A model generated the notes under the pieces. It did no database searches. It saw only the letters and a list, made by a program, of their open reading frames with translations, and was not told the origin of the DNA. Made by a program: the position numbers and the translations under genes. A stretch of DNA of 32,000 nucleotides from Acaryochloris marina MBIC11017 (lineage in GTDB: Bacteria; Cyanobacteriota; Cyanobacteriia; Thermosynechococcales; Thermosynechococcaceae), in NCBI RefSeq assembly GCF_000018105.1, contig NC_009926.1, forward strand, positions 240,001 to 272,000. Direction: 5' to 3'. This document shows positions 1-17,697 of the stretch, piece by piece; the stretch's first letter is position 1, and each line of letters begins with the position of its first letter.

Positions 1-2811
1 CGGCTGGCTTTTATGCTGGCGGATGCGCAAGTGCCGCTGCTGGTGACGACCTCCACCTCAGCGACCCATCTGCCTAACCCTACCGCCCAGGTGATCAAGT
101 TGGATGCCGATTGGCCGACCATTTCTCAGGAACCGGAACACAATCCCAGCAGTGCGGTTACGGTCGAAAACCTAGCCTACTTGATCTATACCTCCGGCTC
201 AACTGGCACACCGAAGGGCGTTTTGGTGCCCCATGCCGGATTGGTCAATCTAACCGACGACAAGATTCGCACCTGCCAGGTGCGCCCCGATAGTCGCGTC
301 CTGCAATTTTTCTCGCTCAGCTTCGATGCATCCGTTCCCGAAATTGTCATGAGTTTGGGTTGTGGTGCTGCCCTCCATCTAGCTCCCCCAGAGGATTTGC
401 TACCAGGGCCGGGACTCCTAAAGCTACTGCGAGAACAGGCCATCACCCACATCACCGCACCACCCTCTGCCCTGACCGCATTACCACCAGCAGACTTACC
501 CGCGCTGCAGATGGTGTTGGTGGGCGGCGAAGCGCCATCGCCGGAACTGATTGCCCAGTGGTCAAAAGGACGACTGTTCATCAACGCCTATGGCCCCACT
601 GAAACCACCGTCAACGCCAGCATGGTGCCTTGTGAGGCTGGAGCAGAACCAACCCTGCGACCAGCGGCCAACAAGCAGCTCTATATCCTTGATCGCCATC
701 TCCAACTCTTGCCCATTGGCGTACCGGGCGAATTGTATATCGGTGGCATCGGCCTAGCACGAGGCTATCTCAATCGGCCTGAAAAAACGGCAGCAGCCTT
801 TGTGGATTTTGGATTGCCGCTTTTCGATGCTGGATTAGATACGGGTCAGTTATTATCTCCAAACTCCAAAATCCCTAGCGCAGCGCAGCAGAGCCATGCC
901 TTTGAGGCTATAAATCCAGAATCAACTCGTTTATACAAAACCGGCGACCTAGCCTGCTACCGCCGTGACGGTCATATCAAGCTGCTGGGGCGGCTAGATC
1001 ATCAGGTGAAGATTCGAGGCTTTCGGATTGAATTGGGCGAAATTGAAGCCCGCCTGGCTCAACATCCGGCGGTTCAGGAGAGTGTGGTGATTGTACGCGA
1101 AGATCAACCGGGCGAACGCCGCTTGGTGGCCTATGTTGCAACCAGCTCAGACCCAGCACCCACCACCAGTGAGCTACACCGTTTTGTCGCTAAAACCCTG
1201 CCCAAATACATGGTGCCTGCGGTCTTCGTGCGACTAGAGGCTCTCCCGCTCAATCCAAATGGCAAAGTCGATCGGCAGGCGCTACCCGCACCGGATACGT
1301 TGCGGCCTGCCCTGGCCGAGACCTTTGTGGCTCCCCGTAATTCGACTGAGACTTGCCTGGTTCAGGTGTTTGCTGACGTGCTTGAGGTCAAGCAAGTGGG
1401 AGTTCACGATGACTTCTTTGAGTTGGGGGGGCACTCTCTGCTAGCCACTAAGCTGATTGCTCGGTTGTTGAAAGATTTTCAAATCGAGTTGGCGATCGCA
1501 GATTTGTTCGAGTCCCCCACGGTTGCCGGTTTGGCTGAACGCATTGAGTCGCTGCGGCAGGCATCTGGTTCTCAATCAGCCTCCCAGGAGGCTACCCATC
1601 AAACTATCGCAGCGTTCCTCAAAGCTGAAGCCGTCCTCGACCCCACCATTCGCCCAGCACCCGGATCGAGTCGGGCGATCGCTCCAGCCTGTGGCATCTT
1701 CTTAACTGGAGCCACCGGATTTCTTGGCGCTTTTCTACTCGCGGAACTGCTGCAACAAACCACTGCCAAAATCTATTGTTTGGTTCGCTCACACTCGCAA
1801 GCATCAGCCCAACACAAGCTGCAAGCTAGCCTGACATCCTATCAGCTCTGGCATGATGCCTGGCAATCTCGCATTATTCCCATCGTTGGCGATTTAGCTC
1901 AACCCCGTTTAGGCCTCACTGAATCGCAGTTTCAGGCTCTGGCTCGTGATGCTGACATGATTTACCACAGTGGCGCATGGGTACACCATGCCTCGCCCTA
2001 CTCCTTGCTCAAAGCCAGCAATGTTTTGGGCACTGAAGAAGTCCTGCGATTGGCCTGTCATACCAAGGTCAAGCCCGTGCATTTTATGTCGGCAACCAGC
2101 GTTTTTGCCCCCGCTGACGTTGCCAACCCCCAGGTGATCCGAGAACAGGAGGATATTACAAATCACGCACCGTTGGGCGGCTACAACCAAAGCAAATGGG
2201 TGGCCGAGCATCTGGTAGTAATGGCGGGCGATCGCGGCCTACCAGTTGCGATTTATCGGTTGGGCCGGATCTCGGGTCACAGTCAAACCGGGGTATTTAA
2301 CCCCAATGACTTTTTGTATCGTCTGATCATCGGCTGTGTTGAGCTGGGCTATGTCCCGAAAGACGCAGAGATGCTGCTCGACATGATTCCAGTGGATTAC
2401 GCTAGTCGTGCCATTGCTTACCTCTCTCAGCAGCCCAGCTCTCAGACGCAACCGTTCCACCTAGTTCATCCCCAGCCGGTTTCGTCCAGCATTCTATTCG
2501 AGGCCCTGAGATCGCAGGGCTACACCGTTCAGCAGATTTCCGAACAGCACTGGCGGAGCAAACTGCTGCACATCGCCGAAACCTCGCCCAATCACCCATT
2601 GTATCCGCTGATTCCCCTACTGACTGCTCCCAGTCAACCGTCTAGTGAACCGTCCCTGGAAGCTGTCCTCCGATTCGACTGTCAAAACACCTTGAATGGA
2701 CTAGCTAAAAGTGAGATCGCATGTCCACCCCTCGATCAATCGCTCTTACACACTTACTTCACCTATCTCAGCCAGAACGGCTGGCTCAAGCAATCTGAAC
2801 CTCAAACCTAA
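1..2811 (+). CDS. Non-ribosomal peptide synthetase, terminal module fragment (adenylation - thiolation - thioester reductase); 5' end outside window
   Basis: Frame 1 is open from nt 1 (RLAF precedes the first ATG). A-domain cores: LAYLIYTSGSTGTPKG, FDASVPE, NAYGPTE, GELYIGGIGLARGY, YKTGDL, KIRGFRIELGEIE, NPNGKVDR. Carrier motif FFELGGHSLLA. Reductase Rossmann motif GATGFLGAFLL plus YNQSKWVAE (Tyr/Lys). Confidence 0.93.
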   Translation, partial: RLAFMLADAQVPLLVTTSTSATHLPNPTAQVIKLDADWPTISQEPEHNPSSAVTVENLAYLIYTSGSTGTPKGVLVPHAGLVNLTDDKIRTCQVRPDSRVLQFFSLSFDASVPEIVMSLGCGAALHLAPPEDLLPGPGLLKLLREQAITHITAPPSALTALPPADLPALQMVLVGGEAPSPELIAQWSKGRLFINAYGPTETTVNASMVPCEAGAEPTLRPAANKQLYILDRHLQLLPIGVPGELYIGGIGLARGYLNRPEKTAAAFVDFGLPLFDAGLDTGQLLSPNSKIPSAAQQSHAFEAINPESTRLYKTGDLACYRRDGHIKLLGRLDHQVKIRGFRIELGEIEARLAQHPAVQESVVIVREDQPGERRLVAYVATSSDPAPTTSELHRFVAKTLPKYMVPAVFVRLEALPLNPNGKVDRQALPAPDTLRPALAETFVAPRNSTETCLVQVFADVLEVKQVGVHDDFFELGGHSLLATKLIARLLKDFQIELAIADLFESPTVAGLAERIESLRQASGSQSASQEATHQTIAAFLKAEAVLDPTIRPAPGSSRAIAPACGIFLTGATGFLGAFLLAELLQQTTAKIYCLVRSHSQASAQHKLQASLTSYQLWHDAWQSRIIPIVGDLAQPRLGLTESQFQALARDADMIYHSGAWVHHASPYSLLKASNVLGTEEVLRLACHTKVKPVHFMSATSVFAPADVANPQVIREQEDITNHAPLGGYNQSKWVAEHLVVMAGDRGLPVAIYRLGRISGHSQTGVFNPNDFLYRLIIGCVELGYVPKDAEMLLDMIPVDYASRAIAYLSQQPSSQTQPFHLVHPQPVSSSILFEALRSQGYTVQQISEQHWRSKLLHIAETSPNHPLYPLIPLLTAPSQPSSEPSLEAVLRFDCQNTLNGLAKSEIACPPLDQSLLHTYFTYLSQNGWLKQSEPQT

Positions 2812-2834: not shown

Positions 2835-3734
2835 TTGCCAAAAACTATGACCTCTTCTACCTCCCGCTACTCCGACTACGATCCCTGGGCCTGGTTATAC
2901 AATCGCTCTGAGGCTCATCTGGCCCTTCAAGGTCTCATGCCCCTTTTGGACAAATTACTATTTCCCCACCTGCCTGAAAACGGCCAGATTCTAGATGTGT
3001 GCTGCGGCACGGGGCAGGTCTCCAAACAGCTGATCCAGCAGGGCTATCAGGTTACAGGGCTGGATGGTTCGGAGAAGATGCTGCACTACGCGCGTGAGAA
3101 TGCACCCCAGGGTAAATTTTTGCTGGACGATGCCCGCTCCTTTACCCTGCCATCTACCTTTGATGCGGCGATTTCAACTGACTCCTCTCTCAACCACATT
3201 ATGAGTCTAGACGAGCTACAGCAGGTATTTCAAAACGTGTACGCCGCCCTGAAGCAGGGCGGACGTTTCCTATTCGACTTGGGTCTGGAAAATCGATATC
3301 GCAATATCGAGGTGAATGATGGGGAACTGCAAGCTGATTACGCCTGGACGGTGGGAGAAACTTATGATGCAGACAACAAAACGGGCACGTTTACGATCAC
3401 GCTGTTTCAGCCTGCCGATTCCGACGCATCCCCCAGCCTGACAAACTCGGACAAGAGATCGCATTCCATCCCCCAACGGCTCAAGCGCTTTGTTTACAAT
3501 CGAGTCCTGCGCGTCCTGCGTCCCGGCCTTTTACCCCAGCTAATTGATAAGTATTGGCAATCTTTACCCATGACCTTTACGGCTAAGCCCTATTCTCAAG
3601 CTGAGGTACGAGCTGCTCTGGAAGTGGTGGGATTCACCCAGGTCGAAGTCTATGATTTTCGGGCTAGGAGAGCCACTCCTCAACGGAAAGATTACGCCTA
3701 CTTCCTAGCCCAAAAACCCAGTGGTCAAGCTTAA
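2835..3734 (+). CDS. Class I SAM-dependent methyltransferase
   Basis: Motif I ILDVCCGTGQVS, downstream acidic LDGSEKM, and GGRFLFD motif. Starts 24 nt after the NRPS stop on the same strand. Confidence 0.85.
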   Translation: MPKTMTSSTSRYSDYDPWAWLYNRSEAHLALQGLMPLLDKLLFPHLPENGQILDVCCGTGQVSKQLIQQGYQVTGLDGSEKMLHYARENAPQGKFLLDDARSFTLPSTFDAAISTDSSLNHIMSLDELQQVFQNVYAALKQGGRFLFDLGLENRYRNIEVNDGELQADYAWTVGETYDADNKTGTFTITLFQPADSDASPSLTNSDKRSHSIPQRLKRFVYNRVLRVLRPGLLPQLIDKYWQSLPMTFTAKPYSQAEVRAALEVVGFTQVEVYDFRARRATPQRKDYAYFLAQKPSGQA

Positions 3735-3774: not shown

Positions 3775-5082
3775 CTAGGTGATTTCTTGAAAAGAAGCCC
3801 CGTACTAAATTGGATGAATTAGGATGTCCCACTTGGGTAACTGAGGATGTCTCTCCAATCGTTTCTCAATGCCTTTCATTGCTTGTTTAGTAAGCGAAAT
3901 TCCTGTTTCATAAGTCTTCTGTGTCACAGTTACAACGGGGTGATTCCCCTTCCAAGTCATGGTGCTAGCCCATCCCAACAGGGTATCAACATCGGTTAAT
4001 AAGGTTCCGTTCCAGTGTTGCTCCAAAATCCCCCAACATCGCTCAATGGGGTTGTACTTGCTGTGATAAGGCGGATAGTACAGGAGTTGAATAGCGGTGC
4101 CGATGTGATCGCTAAATGCCACCAGTCGATTGAGGAACTGAGTGCGTACCCCACTATTCTCAGGACCGTTATCCAACTTGATCTGGATGAGCTGCAGGGT
4201 TTGCTGTTCGGTGGGGGCCAGGGTGTTCCACCAATCCTGGAGATTATCGACCATAAAATCGCTCGTTTTGTGAGAATGGCCAAAAATGATGTGTAATGTA
4301 TCGGTATCCTCCTCTAGGATGCCGCAGGGAATATATTTTGGCCCACTACCCATATCGTGATCACAGGCTTTCGTTTGGGTTCGAGTCTTGCCCCGACGAG
4401 AGGACTCCCCTAGTTCAACGGTGGCTTTGCAATCGATGCTCAATCGTTTGACGGTACCGTCATGGTCTTTCAGGTCTTTGTGTTTGAGGTTGGCAAAGAC
4501 GGCATCGGTTTCCGGCAGTTTTTTTGGGGTTTAGCTTTGAGGACACGACGGAGTCGATAGCCTAACCGATTCAAGACGACGGCCATGGTACTCTTTGCCG
4601 GTACAGACTTGGGGGGAAATCCTTGCGCTCTCAAGTGGGTGATAGCGGCAGCCGCTGTTAAGCGGGTATAGGCAGTTGAGCTGGAAAAGGTGGGGTCTTG
4701 TTGGCAATGGGCTTCTGCAAGCTCCCGTAAGGCGGTTGCGACCTCTGGGTGAAGGTCTTCCCAACGTTTCCTGCCACAGAAACCCGACTGAGCACCCACA
4801 CAAATCATGCCTGTTCGCTTCTCACCTAAACCTGTTGCCACCGTATTTCGACCCCAGCCAAAGATAATTTCTGTGAGATTGGGGTTCCCGTCACAGTATT
4901 TGAGGGCGATGTCTGCCTGGAAAGCCCGGCGGCGGGCTCCTGTCATTTTCGAGGAGGCAAATTTCAGATCTTCAAGTTGATTCCAGGTTAATTGGTCACG
5001 CATGCTCAGAGTTAGATTCAATGCATCACTATTACATTCTGTGCTCAGAAGTATGTGAGGTCTTTCCTAGAAATCGCCCTAG
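3775..5082 (-). mobile_element. ISAzo13-like insertion sequence (about 1.3 kb) between the methyltransferase and aminotransferase genes
   Basis: Imperfect terminal inverted repeats: CTAGGTGATTTCTTGAAAAGA at 3775-3795 versus the reverse complement of TCTTTCCTAGAAATCGCCCTAG at 5061-5082. They flank a single transposase reading frame. Confidence 0.7.
3805..5021 (-). pseudogene. ISAzo13-family DDE transposase, split into two frames at a 7-nt homopolymer (frameshifted, or expressed by -1 slippage)
   Basis: ORFs 4470-5021 and 3805-4443 are N- and C-terminal halves of one protein. Recognisable motifs: SIDCKATVELG, CDHDMG, DNGPENSG, YYPPYHSKYNPIERCWGILEQHWNG, LPKWDILIHP. The frames join across the T7 tract at 4519-4525: frame 0 reads KPQKNCRK, the -1 frame reads KPQKKLPETDAVFANLKHKD. 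Confidence 0.8.
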
Positions 5083-5132: not shown

Positions 5133-5171
5133 AGCTAGGCTACATCCTCCTATGATAGTCTCAGATTTACT

Positions 5172-5186
5172 TGAGAATAATTCTCG
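5172..5186. promoter_or_regulatory. Fur-box-like 7-1-7 palindrome upstream of the aminotransferase operon
   Basis: TGAGAATAATTCTCG; the core GAGAAT-A-ATTCTC is a perfect palindrome. Compare the 7-1-7 Fur consensus TGATAATnATTATCA. It lies 21 nt upstream of the ATG at 5207. Confidence 0.45.
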
Positions 5187-5206
5187 ATTGCTATTAGGGT
5201 GATGTC

Positions 5207-6682
5207 ATGACCCAGTCTCTTTTAGACTCCCAATCTAATCCTCAGCAAAGTCCTCAATTGGATCCTCAGCGTGCCTATTTGGACAGGTTCATTGTGCGTT
5301 ACACCCAACGAACTCAAACCTCCAAGGCGATTGCCCAATTCTCTCGTTCCGTCCTGGCCGATCCGAGGCAATCGGAATGGTTTAGTCCAACCACCAAAGA
5401 GCTGTGCTACCTGGTTGTGGGCGAGCGATCGCAGGGATCGCGGGTCTGGGATGTCAACGGGAACGAGTACATTGACCTAATTATGGGGTTTGGAGCCAAC
5501 CTGCTGGGTCACAATCCACCATTGATTAAAGAGGCATTGCAGGCACAACTGGAAAAAGGCATCCAGCTCGGCCCCCAGGCCGAATATGCGGGTGAGGTGG
5601 CGGCCTTGATTAGTGAGCTGACAGGTTTAGAGCGGGTCGCGTTTAGCAATACGGGTACGGAAGCGGTGATGACCGCGGTGCGGCTGGCGCGAGCGGCAAC
5701 GCAGCGGACTAAAATTGCCGTCTTTACCAATTCCTATCACGGTCACGCCGATGGGGTCTTGGTAGAGCCTGGATTTCCCCTGCCCAGCATTCTACAGCGA
5801 TTGCTGGGGGGGCTCGTCTCCCGCTTAAATGCCCGCGCTGTGCCAATGGCTCCAGGCATTCCCAAGGTGATCGCTAAAAATGTTTTAGTTCTAGACTACG
5901 GCAATCCGGAATCGCTCCAAGTGATTAAAGCTCATCGCCATCAGCTAGCCGCCGTCTTGGTGGAGCCTGTTCAGAGTCAGCAGCCCGACTTACAGCCTAA
6001 AGCGTTTCTGCATGACTTGCGGTCAATCACCCAGGATTCCGGCATTGCGCTGATCTTTGACGAAATGGTGACGGGATTTCGCCTCCACTTAGGAGGAGCA
6101 CAGGCATGGTTTGGCGTTGAAGCTGACATCGCTACCTATGGCAAGGTGGTAGGTGGTGGCCTCCCCATCGGCGTGATTGGGGGTAAAGCCGCTTATCTCG
6201 ACAAGATTGACGGCGGTCAGTGGGCCTATGGCGATGACTCCTACCCCTCAGTAGAGAAGACCTTTTTTGCCGGTACCCACTGCAAGCACCCCTTATCAAT
6301 GGCAGCGGCACGGGCTTTACTCCACCATCTCAAGCAGCAAGGGCCGACCCTGCAAGAGCAATTGAATCAGCGCACCGCTTGTTTTGTGGAACAGTTCAAT
6401 GCTTTTTTAGCCGTCAATTCTTTGCCTATACAAATGGCTCATTTTGGCTCTTTCTTTAGTCCCGTTTTTCGTCAAGATGCCAGTCCATGTACAATTTCCG
6501 CGCTGATGCCGGGGTTCGAACTGTTGCGCTACCACCTGCTTGATCGGGGCATTTTGCTGCGCGGTGAAGGTGGCGGCTTTCTATCAACTGCCCATACAGA
6601 TGACGACATCAATGCTATCACTCAGGCGATGAAAGATAGCATCGCTGAGCTACAGTCAGCAGGCTTTTTTCCGACCTCATGA
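5207..6682 (+). CDS. Class-III (glutamate-1-semialdehyde aminomutase-like) PLP-dependent aminotransferase
   Basis: GSRVWDVNGNEYIDLIMGFGANLLGHNPP, AFSNTGTEAVMTAVRLARA, IFDEMVTGFR, and YGKVVGGGLPIGVIGG (PLP lysine region). This resembles AMT domains and stand-alone transaminases of NRPS/PKS clusters. Confidence 0.88.
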   Translation: MTQSLLDSQSNPQQSPQLDPQRAYLDRFIVRYTQRTQTSKAIAQFSRSVLADPRQSEWFSPTTKELCYLVVGERSQGSRVWDVNGNEYIDLIMGFGANLLGHNPPLIKEALQAQLEKGIQLGPQAEYAGEVAALISELTGLERVAFSNTGTEAVMTAVRLARAATQRTKIAVFTNSYHGHADGVLVEPGFPLPSILQRLLGGLVSRLNARAVPMAPGIPKVIAKNVLVLDYGNPESLQVIKAHRHQLAAVLVEPVQSQQPDLQPKAFLHDLRSITQDSGIALIFDEMVTGFRLHLGGAQAWFGVEADIATYGKVVGGGLPIGVIGGKAAYLDKIDGGQWAYGDDSYPSVEKTFFAGTHCKHPLSMAAARALLHHLKQQGPTLQEQLNQRTACFVEQFNAFLAVNSLPIQMAHFGSFFSPVFRQDASPCTISALMPGFELLRYHLLDRGILLRGEGGGFLSTAHTDDDINAITQAMKDSIAELQSAGFFPTS

Positions 6683-7143
6683 CGTTCCCTGCTTTGCCTC
6701 CCAGGCTCTATTTAGTCGTTCCCTGGGATTTACCGATTCAACACCCACTAGATGATGTTTATAAAGACAAACTGGAGCGATCGCTTAAACAGTTCTTGAT
6801 TGCCCTAGATCAAGATTCTGATCAAGTGGCTCAAGCAATTATCAATCGGGAACTTTCTCGTCTTGATCTCAGCTCTGTCTCCCCCATTGCATTAACCTCA
6901 ACTCAAACTGCTCTTAAGCCCTGCGAAGTCGAAGATTTTGATGCTTACTTTGAAGTCAACCACGTACAAACTAACGAACCTGCTACCTGTATGATTTGGA
7001 GTCTGCTAGTTTCCTACCAAGCATTTTTAACACTATGTCAGCAAAAACATGACTTTTATCTGGAGCATATCACCCAGCAAAAACAGGGATTTAGGAGCTA
7101 TACAAACTTACTATCTAGAGTTTTTGATCTCAATTTGGAGTGA
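6679..7143 (+). CDS. Hypothetical protein (154 aa), translationally coupled to the aminotransferase (ATGA overlap)
   Basis: ORF only; no motif recognised. The start overlaps the upstream stop (ATGA at 6679-6682) and the stop overlaps the next start (GTGA at 7140-7143). Confidence 0.55.
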   Translation: MTFPALPPRLYLVVPWDLPIQHPLDDVYKDKLERSLKQFLIALDQDSDQVAQAIINRELSRLDLSSVSPIALTSTQTALKPCEVEDFDAYFEVNHVQTNEPATCMIWSLLVSYQAFLTLCQQKHDFYLEHITQQKQGFRSYTNLLSRVFDLNLE

Positions 7144-7742
7144 ATAATAATTCAATTCCCATGATCACGAATGCTACTATCACGAATGCTGATCCCCAGC
7201 AAATATGGAAAAAATGCCATTGGCTATTCTTCATCAACATTCAGGGACTAATTCTTTCCCTGCGTCGCTTTGAGCGAAGTCTGGCTGCAAACAACTTATC
7301 CCAAGCCCGTGTAGAGTTGGAAACGGCGACTGATCTGATGCTGGCCTCTGGCTCAGCAATGGAATTGGCAGGGTGCCTTAGTCACCAAGAGTATGAGCAC
7401 CAAGTTCGGCCAACAATGGCTCCACCTCATGTCACGACCCCTGACTTTAGTGGTCTGATGTCGTGGGAACATGCCGCCCTTATCGAGATTTGGAAGAAGC
7501 TGCGCCCAACCTTTGCAAACCTACCTGACTCTTTTTCAGCTCAGCATCAGCAGTTTGTTTCCGCCTATTTCAGCTTATCCAATGCCCACAGAGCAGTTTG
7601 CCAAAAGTTTGGTGGAGATCAGATGGGCAGTTTACGCTGTGATCATATAACCGCCGTTCAGGTCTTGGACAAATTTACGAAAAATCGCTGGAAGTTAATT
7701 GACCCCAAGCGCAAAACCGCTCCAGGTTGCCCATTTCGCTAG
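7140..7742 (+). CDS. Hypothetical protein (200 aa); weak by-eye resemblance to heme-dependent aromatic oxygenases (TDO/SfmD-like)
   Basis: ORF in operon context; alternative ATG start at 7161. RPTMAPPHVTTPDFSGLMSWEHAALIEIWKKL loosely recalls the TDO segment TMTPxDFxxFRxxLxxASGFQSxQFRxxE. An HxxxC string (HRAVC) lies near the C-terminus. Confidence 0.5.
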   Translation: MNNNSIPMITNATITNADPQQIWKKCHWLFFINIQGLILSLRRFERSLAANNLSQARVELETATDLMLASGSAMELAGCLSHQEYEHQVRPTMAPPHVTTPDFSGLMSWEHAALIEIWKKLRPTFANLPDSFSAQHQQFVSAYFSLSNAHRAVCQKFGGDQMGSLRCDHITAVQVLDKFTKNRWKLIDPKRKTAPGCPFR

Positions 7743-7760: not shown

Positions 7761-8024
7761 ATGAAAGATGTGGGTTTGATGAACACGCTAATCGCAATCC
7801 TGACTGATTTGGGAGTTCCTAAAGATTGTCTGCATTCTGAAGCACGATTACATAAGGATCTGCAACTGGATTCGACTGAAATCGTTGAAATTTCTTTGGC
7901 GCTCAAGCGCCGATTAGATGTGCGAGTCAAGCTAGAAGGTCGGCAAGATATGACTTTGGCTCAGGTCTGTGATCGGATCGAAGTGGCTCAGCTTACTAAT
8001 TCAAATTCAGCTCATGGTTCTTGA
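7761..8024 (+). CDS. Stand-alone acyl/aryl carrier protein
   Basis: 87 aa with phosphopantetheine-attachment motif LQLDSTEIVEISLAL. AAGGGGA ribosome-binding site about 10 nt upstream. Confidence 0.85.
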   Translation: MKDVGLMNTLIAILTDLGVPKDCLHSEARLHKDLQLDSTEIVEISLALKRRLDVRVKLEGRQDMTLAQVCDRIEVAQLTNSNSAHGS

Positions 8025-8478
8025 CGTGCAGGGAAAATTGGAGTGCTTAGCACGGAATGTTGATGTTCAGTATGGAGACATCAAAGGTGTGGGTATAGAT
8101 ATTGTGTCAGTTGCCCAAATTGCAAACTTAGTTGAGCAATTTGACTGCCAATCTTTGGCTCTGCTTTTCACTCCAAATGAGTTGGATTGGTGCCAATCGG
8201 CAGGGATTGAAAAAGAAGAGCGAAACCGCGCTTTCGCTCTCTGTTTTGCCACCAAAGAAGCTGTTTCCAAAGCGCTCACAACTGGTTTAGTTGGCATCGA
8301 ATGGACTGACATTGAAGCTTACTTTGAAGCCGATAAAATTCATAACCCGATCACCGTGATGCTATCTGGTGCAGCTAGGGTCCACGCTCGGAATCATCAT
8401 ATCCAGTGCTGGCAGGTGAACTGGTGGGAATGGGATGGGCACGTCATGGTTCATGTCTTGAGTTTCCTAAGGGAATAA
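8014..8478 (+). CDS. AcpS-type 4'-phosphopantetheinyl transferase (canonical catalytic motifs)
   Basis: GVGIDIVSV (Mg-ligand Asp) and FATKEAVSKAL (Mg-ligand Glu). The ORF track opens at 7969; the ATG at 8014 or GTG at 8026 is the more likely start because the earlier one overlaps the carrier gene by 56 nt. Confidence 0.8.
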   Translation: MVLDVQGKLECLARNVDVQYGDIKGVGIDIVSVAQIANLVEQFDCQSLALLFTPNELDWCQSAGIEKEERNRAFALCFATKEAVSKALTTGLVGIEWTDIEAYFEADKIHNPITVMLSGAARVHARNHHIQCWQVNWWEWDGHVMVHVLSFLRE

Positions 8479-8488
8479 GGAAAATCAT

Positions 8489-10030
8489 ATGGGATGCATT
8501 TCTGCACAATTACCGGATATTTTTAATGTGGCGGCCTATTTCCTCGATGGCGAGGTCGCCCAGGAAAATAGTGAGCGAATTGCCCTGTTTTATCAAGAAG
8601 AAACCTACACCTACGGCCAGCTCCAGCAGTGGGTACAGCGGGCAGCGAGATCGCTGCTTATGGCGGGTATTGAACGAGAAAACCGGATTGCTCTGCTCCT
8701 GCCGGATTCCCCTGAACTCGTGTTTGCCTTTTGGGGAGCCATCTGGATGGGGGCGGTTCCTGTGCCAATCAATACTGCCTGTAGTGTCGATGAAGTTCGA
8801 TATATCTTACAGGACTCGCGAGCCAAACTGTTGGTGACAACCGAAGACTGGCAGGCTAAGTTATCCCCCATTACATCGCCCTTTTTGCAGCATACGTGGT
8901 TAAACACTGGAGAAACTCCCTTGTTATCCCAATTAGAGCAGTTGCCGGCAACTGCGATCACAGCCGCTACGTCTCGCGATGAACCTGCCTTCTGGCTTTA
9001 TACCTCCGGCAGCACCGGCAAGCCCAAAGGCGTGATTCATCTGCATCAAAGTATGGTGGTCTGTGTAGAACACTATGCCAAAACGACCTTAGGACTCCGC
9101 CGCGACGACATTACCTATTCAGTGGCGAACATTCCCTTTGCTTATGGATTAGGCAACACACTTTATATGCCGCTGGCTGTGGGGGCAGCAACGGTGCTAT
9201 CCGACGCCATCAATGCCTTCGACATCGTGGCCGACATTCAGCGCTACCAACCCACCGTATTCTTCGGCATTCCCAGCGTATACGCCAACCTCCTCGCCAT
9301 CCATGAGATCGAACCGCTTAACCCGGCTGGTTTGCGTCTCTGTGTCTCGGCAGCAGAGCAACTGCCTGAAAGTCTCTGGTATCAATGGCGGGCAACGCAT
9401 AACCAAGAGATTTACGAAGGGATTGGCACCACAGAGTTTTTGCATATCTTCCTTTCCAATCAACCCGGAGCTTGCAAACCAGGGACCTCGGGACGGCCCG
9501 TTGCTGGCTATGATGTGCGGGTGGTGGACGATGAGGGACACTCTTGTGCAGTGGCGGAAATCGGCAACCTAGTGGTCGGAGGAGAGAGCCTGATGGGGGG
9601 CTACTGGAATCATCTGCAAGCAACCCGACAGGCGATTCATGGGAGCACAATGCACACAGGAGATAAATATCAGTGCGATGCCGAGGGCTATTTCAAATTT
9701 ATGGGACGTAAGGACGACCTGTTTAAGGTGAATGGCCAGTGGGTTTCGCCGATGGAAATTGAGGATGTGTTGCACCAGCATCCCCAGGTACTAGAGGTAG
9801 CTGTGTTGCCTGAATCCCAGGCGGAGGAACGGCTTACCCAGGTGATCGCCTACATTACTCTCAAAGCCGGAAACCCTCCATCCCCAGAATTAGAAACCCA
9901 AATCTGTCGGTTTGCTAAACAGCATCTGCCCCATTTTAAGGCGCCTAAAACTGTTCAGTTTGTGGATGCCTTACCGCGCACGCCAACCGGAAAAATTCAT
10001 CGCAAATCGCTGGGTGTTGTGCATTCGTAA
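8489..10030 (+). CDS. Aryl-acid adenylating enzyme of the benzoate/4-hydroxybenzoate-CoA ligase type
   Basis: NVAAYFLD, FWLYTSGSTGKPKGVIHLHQS, GIGTTEFLHIFLSN, GTSGRPVAGY, GDKY...GRKDDLFKVNGQWVSPMEIE, PTGKIHR. Confidence 0.88.
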   Translation: MGCISAQLPDIFNVAAYFLDGEVAQENSERIALFYQEETYTYGQLQQWVQRAARSLLMAGIERENRIALLLPDSPELVFAFWGAIWMGAVPVPINTACSVDEVRYILQDSRAKLLVTTEDWQAKLSPITSPFLQHTWLNTGETPLLSQLEQLPATAITAATSRDEPAFWLYTSGSTGKPKGVIHLHQSMVVCVEHYAKTTLGLRRDDITYSVANIPFAYGLGNTLYMPLAVGAATVLSDAINAFDIVADIQRYQPTVFFGIPSVYANLLAIHEIEPLNPAGLRLCVSAAEQLPESLWYQWRATHNQEIYEGIGTTEFLHIFLSNQPGACKPGTSGRPVAGYDVRVVDDEGHSCAVAEIGNLVVGGESLMGGYWNHLQATRQAIHGSTMHTGDKYQCDAEGYFKFMGRKDDLFKVNGQWVSPMEIEDVLHQHPQVLEVAVLPESQAEERLTQVIAYITLKAGNPPSPELETQICRFAKQHLPHFKAPKTVQFVDALPRTPTGKIHRKSLGVVHS

Positions 10031-10071
10031 CGTCAGCACCTCGAAACATTTAAACCTATTGCAAGGAGATA

Positions 10072-11394
10072 TTGATGGTTACAGAATTGCACCCAACAAT
10101 CACCTATCAGGAAACATTTGTTCCAGGAAAAAGAAGCGAGATCGCAACTCTAAAATCCTGTTTGGATGCAGGACTCTTTTCCAATTACATGCTATACAAG
10201 AAAGATGGCGACGTTCGCATTGCAGGGAATGAACTGGCGACTATATCAGTCAGTCCAGATGTCATTCAGCTCCAGAGTCAGGGGCAGTCGCATACTGAAC
10301 CCGCCACCGATCCTTTTCAGCAAGTTGGCGCATTACTAAAGACATTAGCAATTAAAAATTGGACAGCCTATGGCTATGTTGCTTTCGATATGGCCAGATT
10401 CTATTCCTCCTATTCCAAATCGATACAGCAGCCGCTGCTTCACTTTCTAGTACCAGAAACCGAACTGCAATTTACCCATGCAGGGGTTCATGTTAAGCGG
10501 GTAGGCTTACTCGATCCACTGCTAAAGATTTTGGAAAGCGATCGCTCCCTCGCTGATTACCAGCCAATTCCGCTGGAGCAAGATGCTGCTGATTGCGAGC
10601 CCTATTCCCACAAAATCAAGACTCTAATCGCGGCCATCCAACAGAATGAATTGCACAAAGCCATTATCTCTCGTTCAAAAAAGCTGACTGGTGATTTAGA
10701 TTTAATCGGCACCTATGCTGTGGGAGTAAAGAACAATAATTCGGCTCGTTCCTATTGCTTTAAGCTGGCAGATGTAGGTGCTGTAGGCTTTAGCCCTGAG
10801 ATTTTGATGGAGGTCAATCAGGCGGGAATGCTAGTGACCAATCCCCTGGCTGCTACTCGCCCTCGTGGAAAAGATCATGAGGCAGATCAGCAGTTAGAGA
10901 ACGAGCTATTTACTGATGCAAAAGAGGTCAAAGAACATGCGCTTTCTATTTGGCTTGCTCAAAGTGAATTAGACTCTGTCTGCATACCTCAGACGGTGAA
11001 AGTGTTTAACTTTATGGAAGTCAAAAAGTATCGGTGTGTACAGCACTTGTCCTCGCGAGTAGGCGGACAACTGCAAACAGGTAAAACGCTTTGGGATGCC
11101 TTGAAAGTTATATTTCCGGGGGTCACTGTGACGGGCATTAATAAATCTCAGGCACTCGATTGGATCGACCAGCTAGAGAGTGAGCCACGCGGTATTTATG
11201 CAGGTGGTATTGGTTGGGTGGACAGCAAGGGAATGGCGGATTTAGCGATAGCAATTCGCTCGGTCTATCAGTATTGCAACACCATCTGCCTTAACGCTGG
11301 AGCCGGAATCGTGGCTGAATCCAATACGCAAAACGAGTATGTGGAATCAGTCAACAAAATGAACACAATGCTGACCAGTTTAGTCTTGAAATGA
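10072..11394 (+). CDS. Salicylate synthase-like chorismate-utilising enzyme (Irp9/MbtI type)
   Basis: KAIISR, GFSPEILM, NPLAATRPRG, KEVKEHALSI, VQHLSS, IFPGVTVTGINK, PRGIYAGGIGW, AIAIRSVYQ, GAGIVAES. At 440 aa it matches Irp9/MbtI in length. AAGGAGA RBS at 10063-10069; TTG at 10072 or ATG at 10075. Confidence 0.8.
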   Translation: MMVTELHPTITYQETFVPGKRSEIATLKSCLDAGLFSNYMLYKKDGDVRIAGNELATISVSPDVIQLQSQGQSHTEPATDPFQQVGALLKTLAIKNWTAYGYVAFDMARFYSSYSKSIQQPLLHFLVPETELQFTHAGVHVKRVGLLDPLLKILESDRSLADYQPIPLEQDAADCEPYSHKIKTLIAAIQQNELHKAIISRSKKLTGDLDLIGTYAVGVKNNNSARSYCFKLADVGAVGFSPEILMEVNQAGMLVTNPLAATRPRGKDHEADQQLENELFTDAKEVKEHALSIWLAQSELDSVCIPQTVKVFNFMEVKKYRCVQHLSSRVGGQLQTGKTLWDALKVIFPGVTVTGINKSQALDWIDQLESEPRGIYAGGIGWVDSKGMADLAIAIRSVYQYCNTICLNAGAGIVAESNTQNEYVESVNKMNTMLTSLVLK

Positions 11395-11403
11395 CTGACT
11401 GAA

Positions 11404-11844
11404 ATGAACCAGCCAACTCATCAGCATGAAGCTCCCTATCGACAGGGCTTACATATTGTCAAAACTGCTTGGATTGAAGCTTGCTTAGCTCAATCAGGTG
11501 AGCAGTTTGAACAGCAGTACTTTTCCATCGCAGAACGGCATCGGACCCAGATCCGAGCGCCCTATGCTCAATATCTGGCGGGCCGTTTTGCTGCCAAAGC
11601 CACAATCCTACAAATTCTCCACATTCAACTTGAGACCTTTGATCGATGGCACGACATTGAGATTAAAAATTGGCCTCATGGTGAACCCTTTGTGACGCTT
11701 GATGGCTACTGTCAAAAATTGGCCGCCGATCTTCACCTTAACAACTGGCTACTGAGCATCAGCCATATATCAACCTATGCAGCAGCCAGTGTGATCGCAC
11801 GGCTAAAAAGTCCGTTTCACAAAGAAAAAAGTCCGTTTCGCTAA
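11404..11844 (+). CDS. AcpS-like protein with substituted catalytic residues (probable pseudo-PPTase or neofunctionalised paralogue)
   Basis: Clear AcpS scaffold: YLAGRFAAK, DIEIKN..HGEPFV, LLSISHISTYAAASVIA. However, GxD is GLH, KEA is KAT and GKP is GEP. The last 12 codons are encoded by a 2 x 21-bp DNA repeat. Confidence 0.7.
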   Translation: MNQPTHQHEAPYRQGLHIVKTAWIEACLAQSGEQFEQQYFSIAERHRTQIRAPYAQYLAGRFAAKATILQILHIQLETFDRWHDIEIKNWPHGEPFVTLDGYCQKLAADLHLNNWLLSISHISTYAAASVIARLKSPFHKEKSPFR

Positions 11845-11848
11845 GAAA
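11807..11848 (+). repeat. Tandem 2 x 21-bp direct repeat (site B)
   Basis: AAAGTCCGTTTCACAAAGAAA followed by AAAGTCCGTTTCGCTAAGAAA. It spans the stop codon of the AcpS-like ORF, 24 nt before the next ORF. Confidence 0.9.
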
Positions 11849-11871
11849 TTGGCAGAGTGTAATGATTACAC

Positions 11872-12999
11872 TTGATAGATCGCTTTGATAAATCTTTCGC
11901 CTATAGTCTCCCTGTGAATTTCATCCGCCCTCAACTCTTTAATGACTGTCAAATTTGTTCAGTCATTTCTAAATCCAATGGTGAAGATCCTATTGGGAGT
12001 GCTCATCCCTGTGATATCTGGATAATGGTCGAGATTTCATTGCCTTGGACAGAAGAACGGTTGATGACGGAACCGATTCTAAGACAACTTTACCAGTTGT
12101 TTCATGACTACTACGATGCCGATGAACAACCATTTCAGATGATGCCAATGGTTATTGCGCCTGACCATAACTATTCTGTTCCCGAGTACACGCGTGTCTT
12201 GCTTTTCCAGCGCCCAGCTCCATTCTTTGCCCAGTTCAACAAACAGGAATTCCTCCTTCCTTTTGAGCAGCTTCCCCATTTGATGCAAACCGCTCTCACC
12301 CAGCCCAGCAATCTCAAAACTTTTGACTGCTATAAACAGCCGACTTCGTTGACCCGCGATCTCTTTGTTTGTACCCACGGAAATGTCGATGTGGCCTGCG
12401 CCCGCTTTGGTACTCCAGTCTATTTTGAACTTCGAAAATATTGTGGGAAAACCGAAGGCGATGGAAAATTTTCTCTAAAATCCAAAATCCAAAATCCAAA
12501 ATCTTTCTACTCCCCACCTTCCTCTAACTCCTCCACCCTCCGTGTCTGGCGCTGTTCTCATTTTGGTGGCCATCAGTTTGCGCCAACCCTGGTGGACTTG
12601 CCTACTGGCCAAGTCTGGGGACATCTGGAGATGGAGATGCTCGACACGCTAATACAGCGGCATCGTCCCGTTACGGAATTGCGGCGATTTTATCGGGGCT
12701 GGTCAGGTCTGCCTCAGTATGCCCAAATTTTGGAACGTGAAGTCTGGATGCAGCAGGGATGGGACTGGCTGGCTTACAACAAATTGGGGCACATCATGGC
12801 TCAAGATACTGATCATGAAAAATGGGACGCGGACTGGGCCGACGTGCGCCTAGAGTTTGCCTCGCCGGATGGTCTCGTTAAAGGAGCGTATGAGGCAAGG
12901 GTGGAAGTGACTGGTTCAGTATTGACAGTCTGGAATTCCGGTGAGAAGCCGGAAGCGGTGAAGCAGTACAGCATCAACCAGTTAATCTGTGTTGCGTAG
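11872..12999 (+). CDS. Sucrase/ferredoxin-like (thioredoxin-like [2Fe-2S]-type) family protein
   Basis: LFVCTHGNVDVACARFG and RCSHFGGHQFAPT motifs are typical of the Suc_Fer-like family. TTG start as given by the ORF track; start uncertain. Confidence 0.7.
   Translation: MIDRFDKSFAYSLPVNFIRPQLFNDCQICSVISKSNGEDPIGSAHPCDIWIMVEISLPWTEERLMTEPILRQLYQLFHDYYDADEQPFQMMPMVIAPDHNYSVPEYTRVLLFQRPAPFFAQFNKQEFLLPFEQLPHLMQTALTQPSNLKTFDCYKQPTSLTRDLFVCTHGNVDVACARFGTPVYFELRKYCGKTEGDGKFSLKSKIQNPKSFYSPPSSNSSTLRVWRCSHFGGHQFAPTLVDLPTGQVWGHLEMEMLDTLIQRHRPVTELRRFYRGWSGLPQYAQILEREVWMQQGWDWLAYNKLGHIMAQDTDHEKWDADWADVRLEFASPDGLVKGAYEARVEVTGSVLTVWNSGEKPEAVKQYSINQLICVA
12477..12503 (+). repeat. Heptanucleotide tandem repeat (AAAATCC) x 3.9 inside the Suc_Fer-like CDS
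   Basis: aaaatcc aaaatcc aaaatcc aaaatc read directly from the sequence; it encodes KSKIQNPKS. Confidence 0.95.
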
Positions 13000-13017
13000 C
13001 AATGGGTTAATTCTAGC

Positions 13018-14367
13018 GTGCGTACTTTCATCTTTCTCTGGCTAGGACAACTGTCTTCTTCGGTTGGCAGCAGCATGACCTATTTTGCGCTCAACCTTTG
13101 GATATGGCAGCAAACTCAGTCGGCAACATCGATTGCTCTCATCTTAGTCTTTTATCAATTGCCTCAAATTGTGATCGCTCCCCTTTCTGGTCTGCTGGCA
13201 GATCGTGTTTCTCGTAAACGCCTGCTGATTTTTAGCGATACGGCATCCGCTTACTGCACCCTTGCCGTGGGCATACTGGCCGCTTTCCAAATTCTGAAGC
13301 TTTGGCATGTCTACCTGATTGCGGCAGCGATTGGCTGCTTTGGGAACATTCAAGCACTCACCTATTCAACTCTGATTCCCCTGATTGTCCACAAACAGCA
13401 TCATACGCGGGCTAGTAGCATGGGAGCCATGGTGGGTTATGGAGCCGATATTTTTTCCCCTGCCCTCGCTGGACTCCTGTATCCACTCATTGGACTCCTA
13501 GGAATTACCTTGATTGACATGAGTACATTTGCGATCGCGATTTTTACCCTAGTGTTAGTGCCAATTCCAGCAATCGAGAAAGTTAACAAACATAACGACG
13601 AACAACGATTGGCTTTCCCAAGTGTTGAGGGAGCAAAACGGAAAATTTGGCGTGAAGTGACGTTTGGGTTTCGCTACATTGCCTCACAACCAAGCTTATT
13701 AACAATGGTTATCACCATTTCCATCTTCGCTTTTCTCCATCAGCTTGGTGAAACGCTCTATCAACCGATGATTTTAGCCCGCACGGGTGGCAACACTCAG
13801 GTCTTAGGCTTGATCGTCGCTGCCTCCGGACTCGGAGGAGTGTTCGGGGCAATTATCTTGAGTATTTGGGGTGGGTTCCGGCGGCGAATATCTGGCATAT
13901 TGGTCGGATTTATTGGAACAGGCGTGAGCAATCTCATTCTGGGACTTGGACATTTCCCTGGACTCTGGGCGGTGGCTCGGTTTGGGTCATCACTCCATAA
14001 TCCACTCGTTATGAGTTCTTACATGGCTGTCTGGTATGCCAAAATTGCCCCAGAACACCAAGGACGTATCTTCGCTGCTGACTATCTGGTGGGAATTGTG
14101 ATTGAATCTACTGCGGGTTTGAGTGCGGGGTTATTAGCTGATCGCTTACTCGAACCTGCCCTGCAGTCTGGTGAATGGATGGCTTTACATTTAGGGGGAT
14201 GGATTGGAACAGGCCCCGGAAGTGGTATGGCATTGTTAATCACGATGAGCGGGATGGGTACGGTACTGATTGGCATTATAGGATTCAAGATTCCACAGTT
14301 GCGAGATGTCGAAACACTCTTAGCCGACCATGACTCTATTGGGGATAAACACACTGCTACTAATTAA
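13018..14367 (+). CDS. MFS transporter, EntS-like (MFS_3) putative metabolite/siderophore exporter
   Basis: N-terminus FIFLWLGQLSSSVGSSMTYFALNLWIW, LADRVSRKRLLIF loop motif, and roughly 12 hydrophobic segments. Last gene of the + strand operon. Confidence 0.85.
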   Translation: MRTFIFLWLGQLSSSVGSSMTYFALNLWIWQQTQSATSIALILVFYQLPQIVIAPLSGLLADRVSRKRLLIFSDTASAYCTLAVGILAAFQILKLWHVYLIAAAIGCFGNIQALTYSTLIPLIVHKQHHTRASSMGAMVGYGADIFSPALAGLLYPLIGLLGITLIDMSTFAIAIFTLVLVPIPAIEKVNKHNDEQRLAFPSVEGAKRKIWREVTFGFRYIASQPSLLTMVITISIFAFLHQLGETLYQPMILARTGGNTQVLGLIVAASGLGGVFGAIILSIWGGFRRRISGILVGFIGTGVSNLILGLGHFPGLWAVARFGSSLHNPLVMSSYMAVWYAKIAPEHQGRIFAADYLVGIVIESTAGLSAGLLADRLLEPALQSGEWMALHLGGWIGTGPGSGMALLITMSGMGTVLIGIIGFKIPQLRDVETLLADHDSIGDKHTATN

Positions 14368-15154: not shown

Positions 15155-15982
15155 ATGGCAAAAATACTTGCGTTTTTTAACCACGCAGGAGGGGTGGGTA
15201 AAACTACCTTAGTACAACAGGTTGGTTATCATCTTTCTCAATGCAAGAGAAGAGTAAAGGGTAAACGAAGTAGAAAAAAGGGTGACTACTATCGAATACT
15301 GCTTGTTGATATGGACCCTCAAGCTTCATTAACAACATTTATGGGGATTGAACCCTACGATCAAGAGAAAACTATATATAATGCCATTCTCAAAGACGAA
15401 GAATTACCTATTCTAAATGCTTTGTATGCAGGTCAGGGAATGGAGGATAGCAATGGATTGGATCTGGTGGCATCAAATTTGGGCTTAGCTATAGCTGAGC
15501 AAGAACTAATGACAGCAGTTATGAAAGACTTTAGGCTGAGGGACTCATTAGAACCAATTAAAGAAGAATATGATTTTATATTGATTGACTGCCCGCCAAG
15601 TCTTGGCAACCTAACTTATATCTCTCTTGTAGCTGCTACTCACTTACTTGTACCCATTCAATCTCAGTACAAGGCATTTAAGGGTGTCCAGCCCCTCTTT
15701 GACACTGTTAGATTGGTCTCTGCCCGTCCTAATAAGTCACTCAAAATTGCTGGTTTTATTCCTACGATGTATGACCAAAGAAATTCTCATGATGAAAGAA
15801 CATTAGCTGCAATTCAGCAACAACTAACACCTGTAGCCAAAGTTTTTTCTCCGATTCCAAGAACTACTACATTTGCTGATGCATCCGAAGAAAATCTTCC
15901 ACTTGCATTGTTTGATAACAAGCATCCTGCCTTGGAACCCATCAAAGTACTTGCAGAACAGTTAGAGAGTTTAGCGCTATGA
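15155..15982 (+). CDS. parA: ParA-family partition ATPase (Walker A lacks the signature lysine)
   Basis: FFNHAGGVGKTT Walker A, LLVDMDPQASLT, ILIDCPPSLG. The stop overlaps the parB start (ATGA). Confidence 0.88.
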   Translation: MAKILAFFNHAGGVGKTTLVQQVGYHLSQCKRRVKGKRSRKKGDYYRILLVDMDPQASLTTFMGIEPYDQEKTIYNAILKDEELPILNALYAGQGMEDSNGLDLVASNLGLAIAEQELMTAVMKDFRLRDSLEPIKEEYDFILIDCPPSLGNLTYISLVAATHLLVPIQSQYKAFKGVQPLFDTVRLVSARPNKSLKIAGFIPTMYDQRNSHDERTLAAIQQQLTPVAKVFSPIPRTTTFADASEENLPLALFDNKHPALEPIKVLAEQLESLAL

Positions 15983-16938
15983 CTAGTAAACGTGATAAAG
16001 CGTATGGTGCAACTATTGATCTTAGCCGTTTGTATGGAAGTTCTTTAGAGTCACTCGATAATGATGTAGATCAAGAAAGCGACAAGATAGCTGTAATTCC
16101 AATAGATAAGATTAAGCGTACTCCAGATCAAGTAAGAAGATACTTTGATCCCATGAAAATGAATCAATTGGTTTCTTCTGTCAGAATTGATGGAATACTT
16201 GAGAATCTCATCGTTTCATCATTAAATGATGGTAAATTTCAACTTATTTCTGGAGAACGCAGACTTCGGGCTGCGAAAGAAGTTGGGCTAACTGAAGTTC
16301 CTGTAAAAATTCTGAACCTTGATGAGTTTGATGCATTTAGAATTAGCCTAATTGAAAATCTTCAGAGAGAAGATCTTAATCCAGTTGAAGAGACGGATGG
16401 AATTATTAAACTACTAGCTGGAGAGCTGCACTTAAGGGAGGATGAAGTTGTTTCGCTCCTTTATCAAATGCAGAATAGCCTCACTAGACAAGTTGTGAAC
16501 CACAACGTTGTGGTTCAGGAGAATCAAGAGACTGTAGAAAAAATATTCAACTACTTGGGGCGGTTGAGTTGGCAATCTTTCGTCAAGCATCGGTTACCAC
16601 TGAGAAAACTTCCTGTAGATATCTTGGAATTCTTACGACAAGGGAAGTTGGCATATACGAAAGCTCAGTTAATTGCACGAATCAAAGACCAAGAATTCCG
16701 AAAAGAAATGTTAAATGTAGCTGTCACAGAAGAATTATCCTTAAGTGAGATAAGGACAAGAATCTCGGAGTTTGCACAAAAAGAGATTTCAAACAATCCT
16801 GATATTGACACTGAATTGAGAAAGAAAACTGCTGGGTGTCTCAAGGCATTGAAAAAGTCAAAGGCTATAAATTCACCTACCAAGCAGAAGAAGTTAAGGA
16901 AAATACTAGAGCAGTTAGAGAAGCTATTGGAGTCATAG
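15979..16938 (+). CDS. parB: ParB-family partition protein
   Basis: ParB N-terminal domain with LISGERRLRAAKEVGL arginine patch, then ENLQREDLNPVEE. Coupled to parA. Confidence 0.9.
   Translation: MTSKRDKAYGATIDLSRLYGSSLESLDNDVDQESDKIAVIPIDKIKRTPDQVRRYFDPMKMNQLVSSVRIDGILENLIVSSLNDGKFQLISGERRLRAAKEVGLTEVPVKILNLDEFDAFRISLIENLQREDLNPVEETDGIIKLLAGELHLREDEVVSLLYQMQNSLTRQVVNHNVVVQENQETVEKIFNYLGRLSWQSFVKHRLPLRKLPVDILEFLRQGKLAYTKAQLIARIKDQEFRKEMLNVAVTEELSLSEIRTRISEFAQKEISNNPDIDTELRKKTAGCLKALKKSKAINSPTKQKKLRKILEQLEKLLES
16496..16517. promoter_or_regulatory. parS-like palindrome copy 2 (perfect 22 bp) inside parB
   Basis: TGAACCACAACGTTGTGGTTCA; it encodes VNHNVVVQ within ParB. Confidence 0.6.
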
Positions 16939-17036
16939 TACTTATTTTTTTACTGATAAAGGAGTCTCTATTGGAGCAACCGATTACCTTGCCCTCATAC
17001 CCATAGCAACGATGTAGATGAGGAAAATGTTAATCT

Positions 17037-17261
17037 ATGAATTTTAATGACCCTCCAGTACAAGCAGCGATTATTGGTGGCGGTTGTACAATAATTAGCT
17101 CTCTAATTGCTGCGATCGCAGCCAGTATCATCGGGAAGAAAATTGCTGATGGAGGTAAACTTTCAAAATTACTAAGTATGGCAATTAAAGATATCGAATT
17201 CTTGTTAGAAGTCGAAAAGTTGCATTGTGGTTGCCCTCCCAAAGGGTGGCGAGGAAAGTGA
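17037..17261 (+). CDS. Small hypothetical membrane protein (74 aa)
   Basis: One hydrophobic helix (AAIIGGGCTIISSLIAAIAASII). A comparable ORF exists on the opposite strand, so coding status is uncertain. Confidence 0.3.
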   Translation: MNFNDPPVQAAIIGGGCTIISSLIAAIAASIIGKKIADGGKLSKLLSMAIKDIEFLLEVEKLHCGCPPKGWRGK

Positions 17262-17270
17262 GAATATGCA
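17229..17270 (+). repeat. 42-bp direct repeat, copy 1
   Basis: GGTTGCCCTCCCAAAGGGTGGCGAGGAAAGTGAGAATATGCA. Confidence 0.9.
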
Positions 17271-17332
17271 TTGTGAAAGAAATAAATCACGAGAAGGAAA
17301 GTATCTGAAGAAATTTACCCGTGATGAAGTTA

Positions 17333-17374
17333 GGTTGCCTTCCCAAAGGGTGGCGAAGAAAGTGAGAATATGCA
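17333..17374 (+). repeat. 42-bp direct repeat, copy 2 (2 mismatches)
   Basis: GGTTGCCTTCCCAAAGGGTGGCGAAGAAAGTGAGAATATGCA. Confidence 0.9.
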
Positions 17375-17476
17375 GTTAGAAAAAATGGATATAAATTTTC
17401 TAGTAAACTCACACCAGGAAGAGCTAAATCCTTATTAATGAAGTTGTAATCTCTAACTTAAACTATTCATTCTTGT

Positions 17477-17697
17477 TTACTGTTTACCCCGTCTATATTC
17501 CCACGGCATAACTGGATTACTCTGGCTCCAAAAGTTAAGCCGCTGCGTTCTCGCCTCTTCCTCAGCAGCAATATACTGATCCTCACTCTCAGAACACCCA
17601 TCCAAGTATCGGTGGTAGACCACGGCATAACCTTCCCGTACAAGCTGAAGTCCTACCGATGTCCCCCCGGAATAGATTTCTGCCACTGTGCGCTCAT
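17477..17697 (-). pseudogene. Thermonuclease (staphylococcal-nuclease-like) gene, C-terminal stump truncated by the Tn3-family element
   Basis: VAEIYSGGTSVGLQLVREGYAVVYHRYL...AAEEEARTQRLNFWSQSNPVMPWEYRR matches the SNase C-terminal pattern. The apparent N-terminus (MPLVSATLQLG) is encoded by the transposon inverted repeat. Confidence 0.65.

Follow-up and report, generated by a model that had tools for sequence, protein, structure and literature searches.

Which step of a biosynthetic pathway is encoded by two small open reading frames (ORFs), 154 and 200 residues long, that lie between an aminotransferase gene and a carrier protein gene in the cyanobacterium Acaryochloris marina MBIC11017? 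The pair, here called L and M, is located in a stretch of 32,000 nucleotides (contig NC_009926.1, positions 240,001 to 272,000), which we refer to as the window. An earlier reading of this DNA (the original prediction) had regarded both ORFs as orphans and, from weak similarities, as a possible split heme-dependent aromatic oxygenase of the fold shared by SfmD and tryptophan 2,3-dioxygenase (TDO), which would provide a catechol. Here, we compared both proteins with their homologues, with solved structures and with related gene clusters. Judged by homology, L and M very probably form one heme enzyme with two chains, of the FbnL/FbnM type in the SfmD branch of the TDO superfamily, which would make L-3,4-dihydroxyphenylalanine (L-DOPA) for the siderophore chelator Dmaq. 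Two ‘hypothetical’ genes hereby become a named step, the predicted catechol formation for Dmaq.

We found over 170 homologues of M with lengths around 190 residues, nearly all of them from cyanobacteria. They are precomputed members of Pfam family PF27188, and NCBI often names them ‘siderophore biosynthesis protein’. A profile built from 29 of these homologues (A1) gave one strong match in the PDB, the 3-methyl-L-tyrosine peroxygenase SfmD (6vdp, E 2.6e-18), in which profile positions 6-180 align with chain residues 183-359. His111, His150 and Cys154 of M (P0002) thereby fall on SfmD His274, His313 and Cys317, and all three are invariant in the 29 homologues as well as in eight fused or permuted forms. 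SfmD is characterised by an HxnHxxxC motif with n of about 38, composed of two axial histidines and one cysteine making a single thioether bond (PMC8179489). We took this motif with n of about 37-40 as the mark of SfmD-type proteins; M carries it, with n = 38 residues between its histidines as in SfmD. The original prediction had pointed to an HxxxC string (HRAVC) as heme-attachment motif and to a peptide recalling the substrate-binding segment of TDO-fold enzymes. Both are present in the 200-residue protein: the former turned out to be the invariant His150/Cys154 pair, while the latter holds the other axial histidine, His111.

The AlphaFold (AF2) model of M is a helical bundle (pLDDT 87), and Foldseek ranks only TDO-superfamily heme enzymes among its best matches. 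MarE, TDO and TyrH occupy the top seven rows and SfmD follows at ranks 14 and 18 with 29% identity (probabilities 0.99-1.0, query-normalised TM-scores about 0.44-0.64, E-values only 0.009-0.2). This model comparison, one of the checks proposed at the outset, put TDO-superfamily enzymes on top. On this basis, M is predicted to be a five-helix heme-binding core, the counterpart of SfmD residues 183-359 with helices alpha7-alpha11, and its model suggests a TDO-like fold for this core.

The assignment of L required a detour. A word-indexed search returned just four relatives, and the resulting reading of L as an orphan was overturned by an exhaustive profile search, which yielded 137 representative-level relatives, and by a locus scan. 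With the numerous homologues of M, the orphan status originally given to both ORFs is thus no longer tenable. For the locus scan, we employed 80 genome loci retrieved with profile A1. A profile of the L relatives from the word-indexed search (A2) matched an ORF immediately before the M homologue in 79 of these loci. A second profile (A4), built from 109 stand-alone L sequences, located an L-type ORF at this place in 78, or 79 when the window is counted; the two loci without one are cut at a contig end. In all 79 testable cyanobacterial loci, M is immediately preceded by L, with a 4-nt overlap of the longest M frame and the L stop in 26 of them, and this pairing is far beyond chance.

A connection between L and SfmD was obtained via single-chain relatives. 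Profile A4, searched against a database of seven sequences, matched the L protein of Agrobacterium (E 1e-39), a 370-residue protein from Streptomyces parvulus over residues 22-163 (E 1e-9) and RenD over residues 6-110 (E 8e-5), and hhalign aligned the L family with RenD residues 4-111 at a probability of 57%. The S. parvulus protein and RenD align to SfmD over nearly the full length from residue ~23-25 onwards (E 5.9e-30 and 3.3e-43). This transitive link, consistent in position and order, suggests that L, which has no heme ligands, corresponds to the N-terminal SfmD layer. In the SfmD structure, the N-layer (residues 18-181) buries about 2400 square angstroms against the core, and the heme-holding C-layer comprises residues 180-321 (PMC8179489); the break between the L and M genes coincides with the boundary of these two layers. 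Instead of a single polypeptide of ~350 residues with both layers, we found two ORFs parted by a stop codon, and all 79 testable loci have the same split, so the pair is a two-chain variant rather than a canonical SfmD. As noted in the original prediction, the two ORFs together (354 residues) are about the size of single-chain family members, to which the 365 residues of SfmD compare well. The L family is much more variable than the M family, with a mean column identity of 22% (A4) versus 57% (A1).

Some homologues elsewhere are indeed fused, a point that the original prediction had wanted checked. Single chains of 366-406 residues (P0197, P0206, P0209, P0257 and P0264) carry the L profile at the N-terminus and the M profile at the C-terminus; P0257 has its full 406 residues in five members of its sequence cluster, which stem from several sources. 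A search for longer homologues with M scored one protein of 399 residues, which according to the warning of the tool is weak evidence. Permuted single chains of ~350 residues, all metagenomic (P0190, P0226, P0259 and P0252), are the rarer architecture. They begin with L lacking its last helix, continue with M and end with this last L helix, recognisable by a GFxSYxxLLxRxF-type motif at the extreme C-terminus; given this topology, the moved helix would dock beside the end of the heme core. The natural break between the SfmD layers, together with the fused and permuted relatives, constitutes a system to probe the role of the non-heme layer in a bis-His, single-thioether heme enzyme.

A quick FastTree phylogeny of 190 M-domain columns (midpoint rooted, SH-like support) placed the split forms in one clade (support 0.93) with three permuted forms as sister group (0.92). 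The fused forms constitute a separate clade (0.98), and the SfmD-type single chains fall on the other side of the tree together with the fourth permuted form, P0252 (0.96). M of Agrobacterium nests within the cyanobacterial split clade beside P0078, at low local support, which suggests that the L-M pair has moved between cyanobacteria and Rhizobiaceae. The tree would be compatible with one event of gene fission, followed by spread in cyanobacteria and transfer into Agrobacterium, with midpoint root and sampling as the weak points of this scenario. A more far-reaching picture combines three chain topologies (split, fused, and permuted with the last L helix behind M) and a single fission with a second function of L-M, which might also drive the ring closure of Dmaq since the conserved five-gene cassette described below contains no other obvious oxidase; taken as a whole, we regard this picture as doubtful.

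What would such an enzyme do in this cluster? According to PMC12971057 (citing Vinnik et al. 2021), FbnL and FbnM start the formation of Dmaq, a quinoline chelator known first from anachelins, by converting L-Tyr to L-DOPA, and both are treated there as a two-protein heme peroxidase. The role in catechol formation assumed in the original prediction agrees with this published assignment. The antiSMASH rule for nonribosomal peptide (NRP) metallophores uses profile hidden Markov models named ‘FbnL and FbnM’, and FbnLM flags are given for cyanobacteria in the validation tables of the same paper (PMC12971057). The two-protein enzyme is thus already described, widespread and used for genome mining and is not a new system, so that our results confirm known biology rather than extend it.

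The protein M has homologues with 42-47% identity on Agrobacterium plasmids. On pAtAF1_95, the gene order is nonribosomal peptide synthetase (NRPS), class-I methyltransferase, aminotransferase, MbtH, L (172 residues) and M (187 residues), followed by polyketide synthase (PKS) and NRPS genes. The L/M pair of this plasmid overlaps by 4 nt and is annotated ‘siderophore biosynthesis protein’, a monooxygenase gene of the Atu3671 family is found nearby, and the cluster is of the fabrubactin type. M of the window shares 43% identity with its plasmid counterpart (E 3e-60), L (P0001) 26% (E 6e-9). Compared via this plasmid, the FbnL/FbnM type of the fabrubactin cluster in Agrobacterium fabrum C58 resembles the pair studied here in its adjacent overlapping small genes, in the order NRPS-methyltransferase-aminotransferase-(MbtH)-L-M, in the conserved His/His/Cys set and in its location within a hybrid NRPS-PKS siderophore cluster. 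In contrast to the Agrobacterium pair, the host here is a cyanobacterium, no MbtH gene separates the aminotransferase from L, an insertion sequence (IS) resides inside the cassette, and salicylate-starter genes are located directly downstream.

In the cluster of Anabaena cylindrica, genes for a reductase (Red), a methyltransferase, an aminotransferase and ‘TyrH’ were assigned to Dmaq formation (Calteau et al. 2014, PMC4247773). This anachelin model, strain PCC 7122, has the same Dmaq gene set in a salicylate-primed NRPS-PKS cluster, while its salicylate genes are placed differently; an Anabaena cylindrica strain also has an L-M pair, the M of which is 63% identical. SfmD (PDB 6VDP/6VDQ; PMC8179489) and RenD share with the pair the homologous C-terminal half, the n = 38 motif and the collinear layers. 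The chemistry of SfmD, aromatic 3-hydroxylation of a tyrosine-type substrate, is also the one predicted here, at a similar total length (365 versus 354 residues). SfmD, an enzyme of saframycin biosynthesis, differs in being one polypeptide instead of two gene products and in serving tetrahydroisoquinoline antibiotics instead of a siderophore chelator. The heme-dependent L-tyrosine hydroxylases of the LmbB2/TyrH type (PDB 7KQS) and TDO/MarE have the helical heme core of the TDO superfamily in common with M and provide its top Foldseek matches; they are, in contrast, single chains with non-covalently bound heme and a single proximal histidine, and their sequence similarity to M is marginal.

The genomic neighbourhood points in the same direction. 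We performed a census of 58 cyanobacterial loci with enough upstream sequence and found the aminotransferase in 56, the methyltransferase in 55 and an NRPS with adenylation, thiolation and reductase domains (A-T-reductase) in 51 of them. Exactly this NRPS followed by methyltransferase, aminotransferase, L and M was present in 37 of the 58 loci and most others keep the same core; a Gloeocapsa plasmid shows the same order. In most of these loci, the homologues hence co-occur with NRPS genes, as the original prediction had proposed to verify. With this conserved cassette, the cluster becomes readable as a siderophore pathway of the anachelin/fabrubactin type. The NRPS gene of the window starts upstream of it (the ORF continues from position 18090 of locus L088), and further upstream on the same contig we found a C-A-oxidase-T module, KS-AT-KR-ACP PKS modules, a second aminotransferase and a trimodular NRPS. 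A heterocyclisation/oxidase module is part of this assembly line, so that its product may differ from anachelin. The gene order downstream of M recurs in three related loci only. All features are compiled in Table 1.

Table 1 Features of the window around the L and M genes (positions are those of the window).
Feature	Position	Strand	Evidence and remarks	Protein
Terminal NRPS module, 3' part (A-T-thioester reductase)	1..2811	+	Pfam AMP-binding, PP-binding, NAD_binding_4	
S-adenosylmethionine (SAM)-dependent methyltransferase	2835..3734	+	Pfam Methyltransf_25, Methyltransf_11; presumed N,N-dimethylation of Dmaq	
IS element, ISAZ013-type DDE transposase in two frames	3805..5021	-	Pfam DDE_Tnp_ISAZ013 on both ORFs	
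Class-III aminotransferase	5207..6682	+	Pfam Aminotran_3 (E 1.4e-50); directly upstream of L	
L ORF (FbnL-like)	6679..7143	+	154 residues, ATG start	P0001
M ORF (FbnM-like, PF27188)	7140..7742	+	200 residues from GTG 7140 or 193 residues from ATG 7161	P0002
His111 codon	7470..7472	+	aligned with SfmD His274, labile axial heme ligand	P0002
HRAVC (His150, Cys154)	7587..7601	+	aligned with SfmD His313 (second axial ligand) and Cys317 (thioether to heme vinyl)	P0002
Downstream genes of the chained operon	7761..14367	+	Pfam; carrier protein, AcpS-like phosphopantetheinyl transferase, aryl-acid AMP ligase, salicylate-synthase-like enzyme	
Downstream operon, continued	to 14367	+	second AcpS-like protein, Suc_Fer-like protein, exporter of the major facilitator superfamily (MFS)	

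Taken together, we propose the following mechanism. L and M would be translated from overlapping or adjacent frames and assemble as a heterodimer that reproduces the two-layer architecture of SfmD, with L taking the place of the N-terminal helical layer against the M core. M would bind heme via His111 and His150, probably with a covalent link via Cys154. In analogy to SfmD, the ligand of the His111 type might swing off upon substrate binding or reduction and open a site for O2 or peroxide. L-tyrosine would then most likely be hydroxylated at C3 to L-DOPA, which the terminal NRPS module could load and release reductively as an aldehyde. The aminotransferase would make the amine, the methyltransferase would dimethylate it and an oxidation would close the ring, leading to a siderophore of the anachelin/fabrubactin kind, made by NRPS-PKS enzymes with a salicylate primer and ending in the Dmaq catechol. 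For the later steps and the sequence in which they occur, we follow cited cluster models and our own reading.

The same split heme enzyme might also act on another substrate or at another step, e.g. on a carrier-bound tyrosyl residue, a modified tyrosine or the reduced, aminated and methylated intermediate, or it might catalyse the quinolinium ring closure in addition or instead. The closest relative with a solved structure, SfmD, acts on 3-methyl-L-tyrosine and not on the tyrosine that is likely here, M and SfmD are only about 29% identical, and the five-gene cassette has no other obvious oxidase for ring closure. The assignment published for FbnL/FbnM is, however, free L-Tyr to L-DOPA (PMC12971057), and the cassette's methyltransferase, a class-I enzyme that accompanies the aminotransferase, fits N-methylation better than C-methylation of the ring. 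We thus consider a different substrate or step improbable and prefer the hydroxylation of L-tyrosine.

Several points weigh against this assignment. For M, the Foldseek E-values are weak (0.009 or higher) despite probabilities of 1.0. For L, direct PDB searches with profiles A2 and A4 did not recover SfmD and gave weak coiled-coil-like noise only, and the AF2 model, composed of four helices, is moderately confident (pLDDT 66) and matches generic helical (four-helix) bundles only. The Agrobacterium comparator is the plasmid pair of A. tumefaciens AF1/95 and not that of strain C58. The activity claim goes back to a secondary citation in PMC12971057. Finally, the IS element divides the cassette into two transcription units, and lying between them it could impair the pathway in this strain.

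The last point leads to the view that L and M are intact relics of a cluster no longer working in this strain, with a Dmaq cassette split by an IS element on a replicon that looks rich in mobile elements. The IS element indeed sits between the methyltransferase and aminotransferase genes, which are adjacent in Gloeocapsa and Agrobacterium, and breaks up an otherwise contiguous cassette; within 10 kb downstream, ParA/ParB genes and a Tn3 transposase gene with an inserted group II intron are found. Against this stand the full length of all cassette ORFs, the invariant catalytic residues, the intergenic position of the IS element and a Fur-box-like palindrome with a promoter-like site that remain upstream of the aminotransferase gene, which together render the loss of function very improbable. 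Even less credible is an accessory role of L, as a chaperone for heme loading or thioether formation or as a docking protein, next to M as a stand-alone minimal heme enzyme: all heme ligands are located in M and L is the far less conserved, generically modelled partner, yet L is collinear and homologous with the N-layer of single-chain enzymes, which in SfmD is extensively buried against the heme core (PMC8179489), fused and permuted single-chain forms exist, and FbnL/FbnM are called a two-protein enzyme in the literature (PMC12971057).

With L and M as the probable two chains of one SfmD-type enzyme, we turn to their gene borders. Both ORFs are real, lie between the aminotransferase and carrier protein genes as originally described and are part of a chained operon. 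The TGA of the aminotransferase gene overlaps the ATG of L as ATGA and the stop of L overlaps the GTG of M as GTGA, so both overlaps of the original prediction are present in the sequence; the GTG, though, is perhaps not the real start of M. Because the public gene call (P0003) comprises 193 residues and the closest homologues of M start at the equivalent of Met8, the ATG at 7161, 17 nt past the L stop, may be the true start instead. The two genes are tightly linked with either start. Searches of local copies of Pfam-A and NCBIfam gave no significant match for either protein. PF27188 is absent from the local Pfam copy used in the scan, and the earlier statement that the ORFs lack a standard domain thus applies to these local copies, but not to the homologues of M, which carry this family. 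A Pfam match of M to Stc1 (E 0.085) was below the cutoff and judged to be due to chance.

Upstream of the aminotransferase gene, about 20 nt from its start, the perfect Fur-box-like palindrome GAGAAT-A-ATTCTC (5171-5187) overlaps the promoter-like -10 site; as a candidate Fur-box, it would fit iron regulation of the operon holding L and M. This operon contains two genes for AcpS-like phosphopantetheinyl transferases (7969-8478 and 11404-11844), the second of which scores weakly on the ACPS model. Further downstream, positions 15155-23285 comprise the ParA/ParB genes followed by the Tn3-family transposase gene, in which the interrupting group II intron encodes a reverse transcriptase/maturase that has an HNH domain. 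The window belongs to a contig of 374 kb, one of 10 in an 8.4-Mb genome. The cluster in the window may be plasmid-borne, since homologous clusters are found on plasmids in Gloeocapsa and Agrobacterium.

Two single-chain SfmD-like proteins, both annotated as hypothetical, were found outside the split family. The 370-residue protein of S. parvulus is encoded on pSPA1 (locus L084, 5437-6549) and adjoins NRPS genes, with a methyltransferase and a siderophore-interacting protein among its neighbours. In Azospirillum sp. B510, a protein of 354 residues is encoded on pAB510f (locus L085, 7503-8567) and adjoins NRPS, methyltransferase and P450 genes. Each of them probably represents an uncharacterised step of tyrosine hydroxylation in another NRPS pathway.

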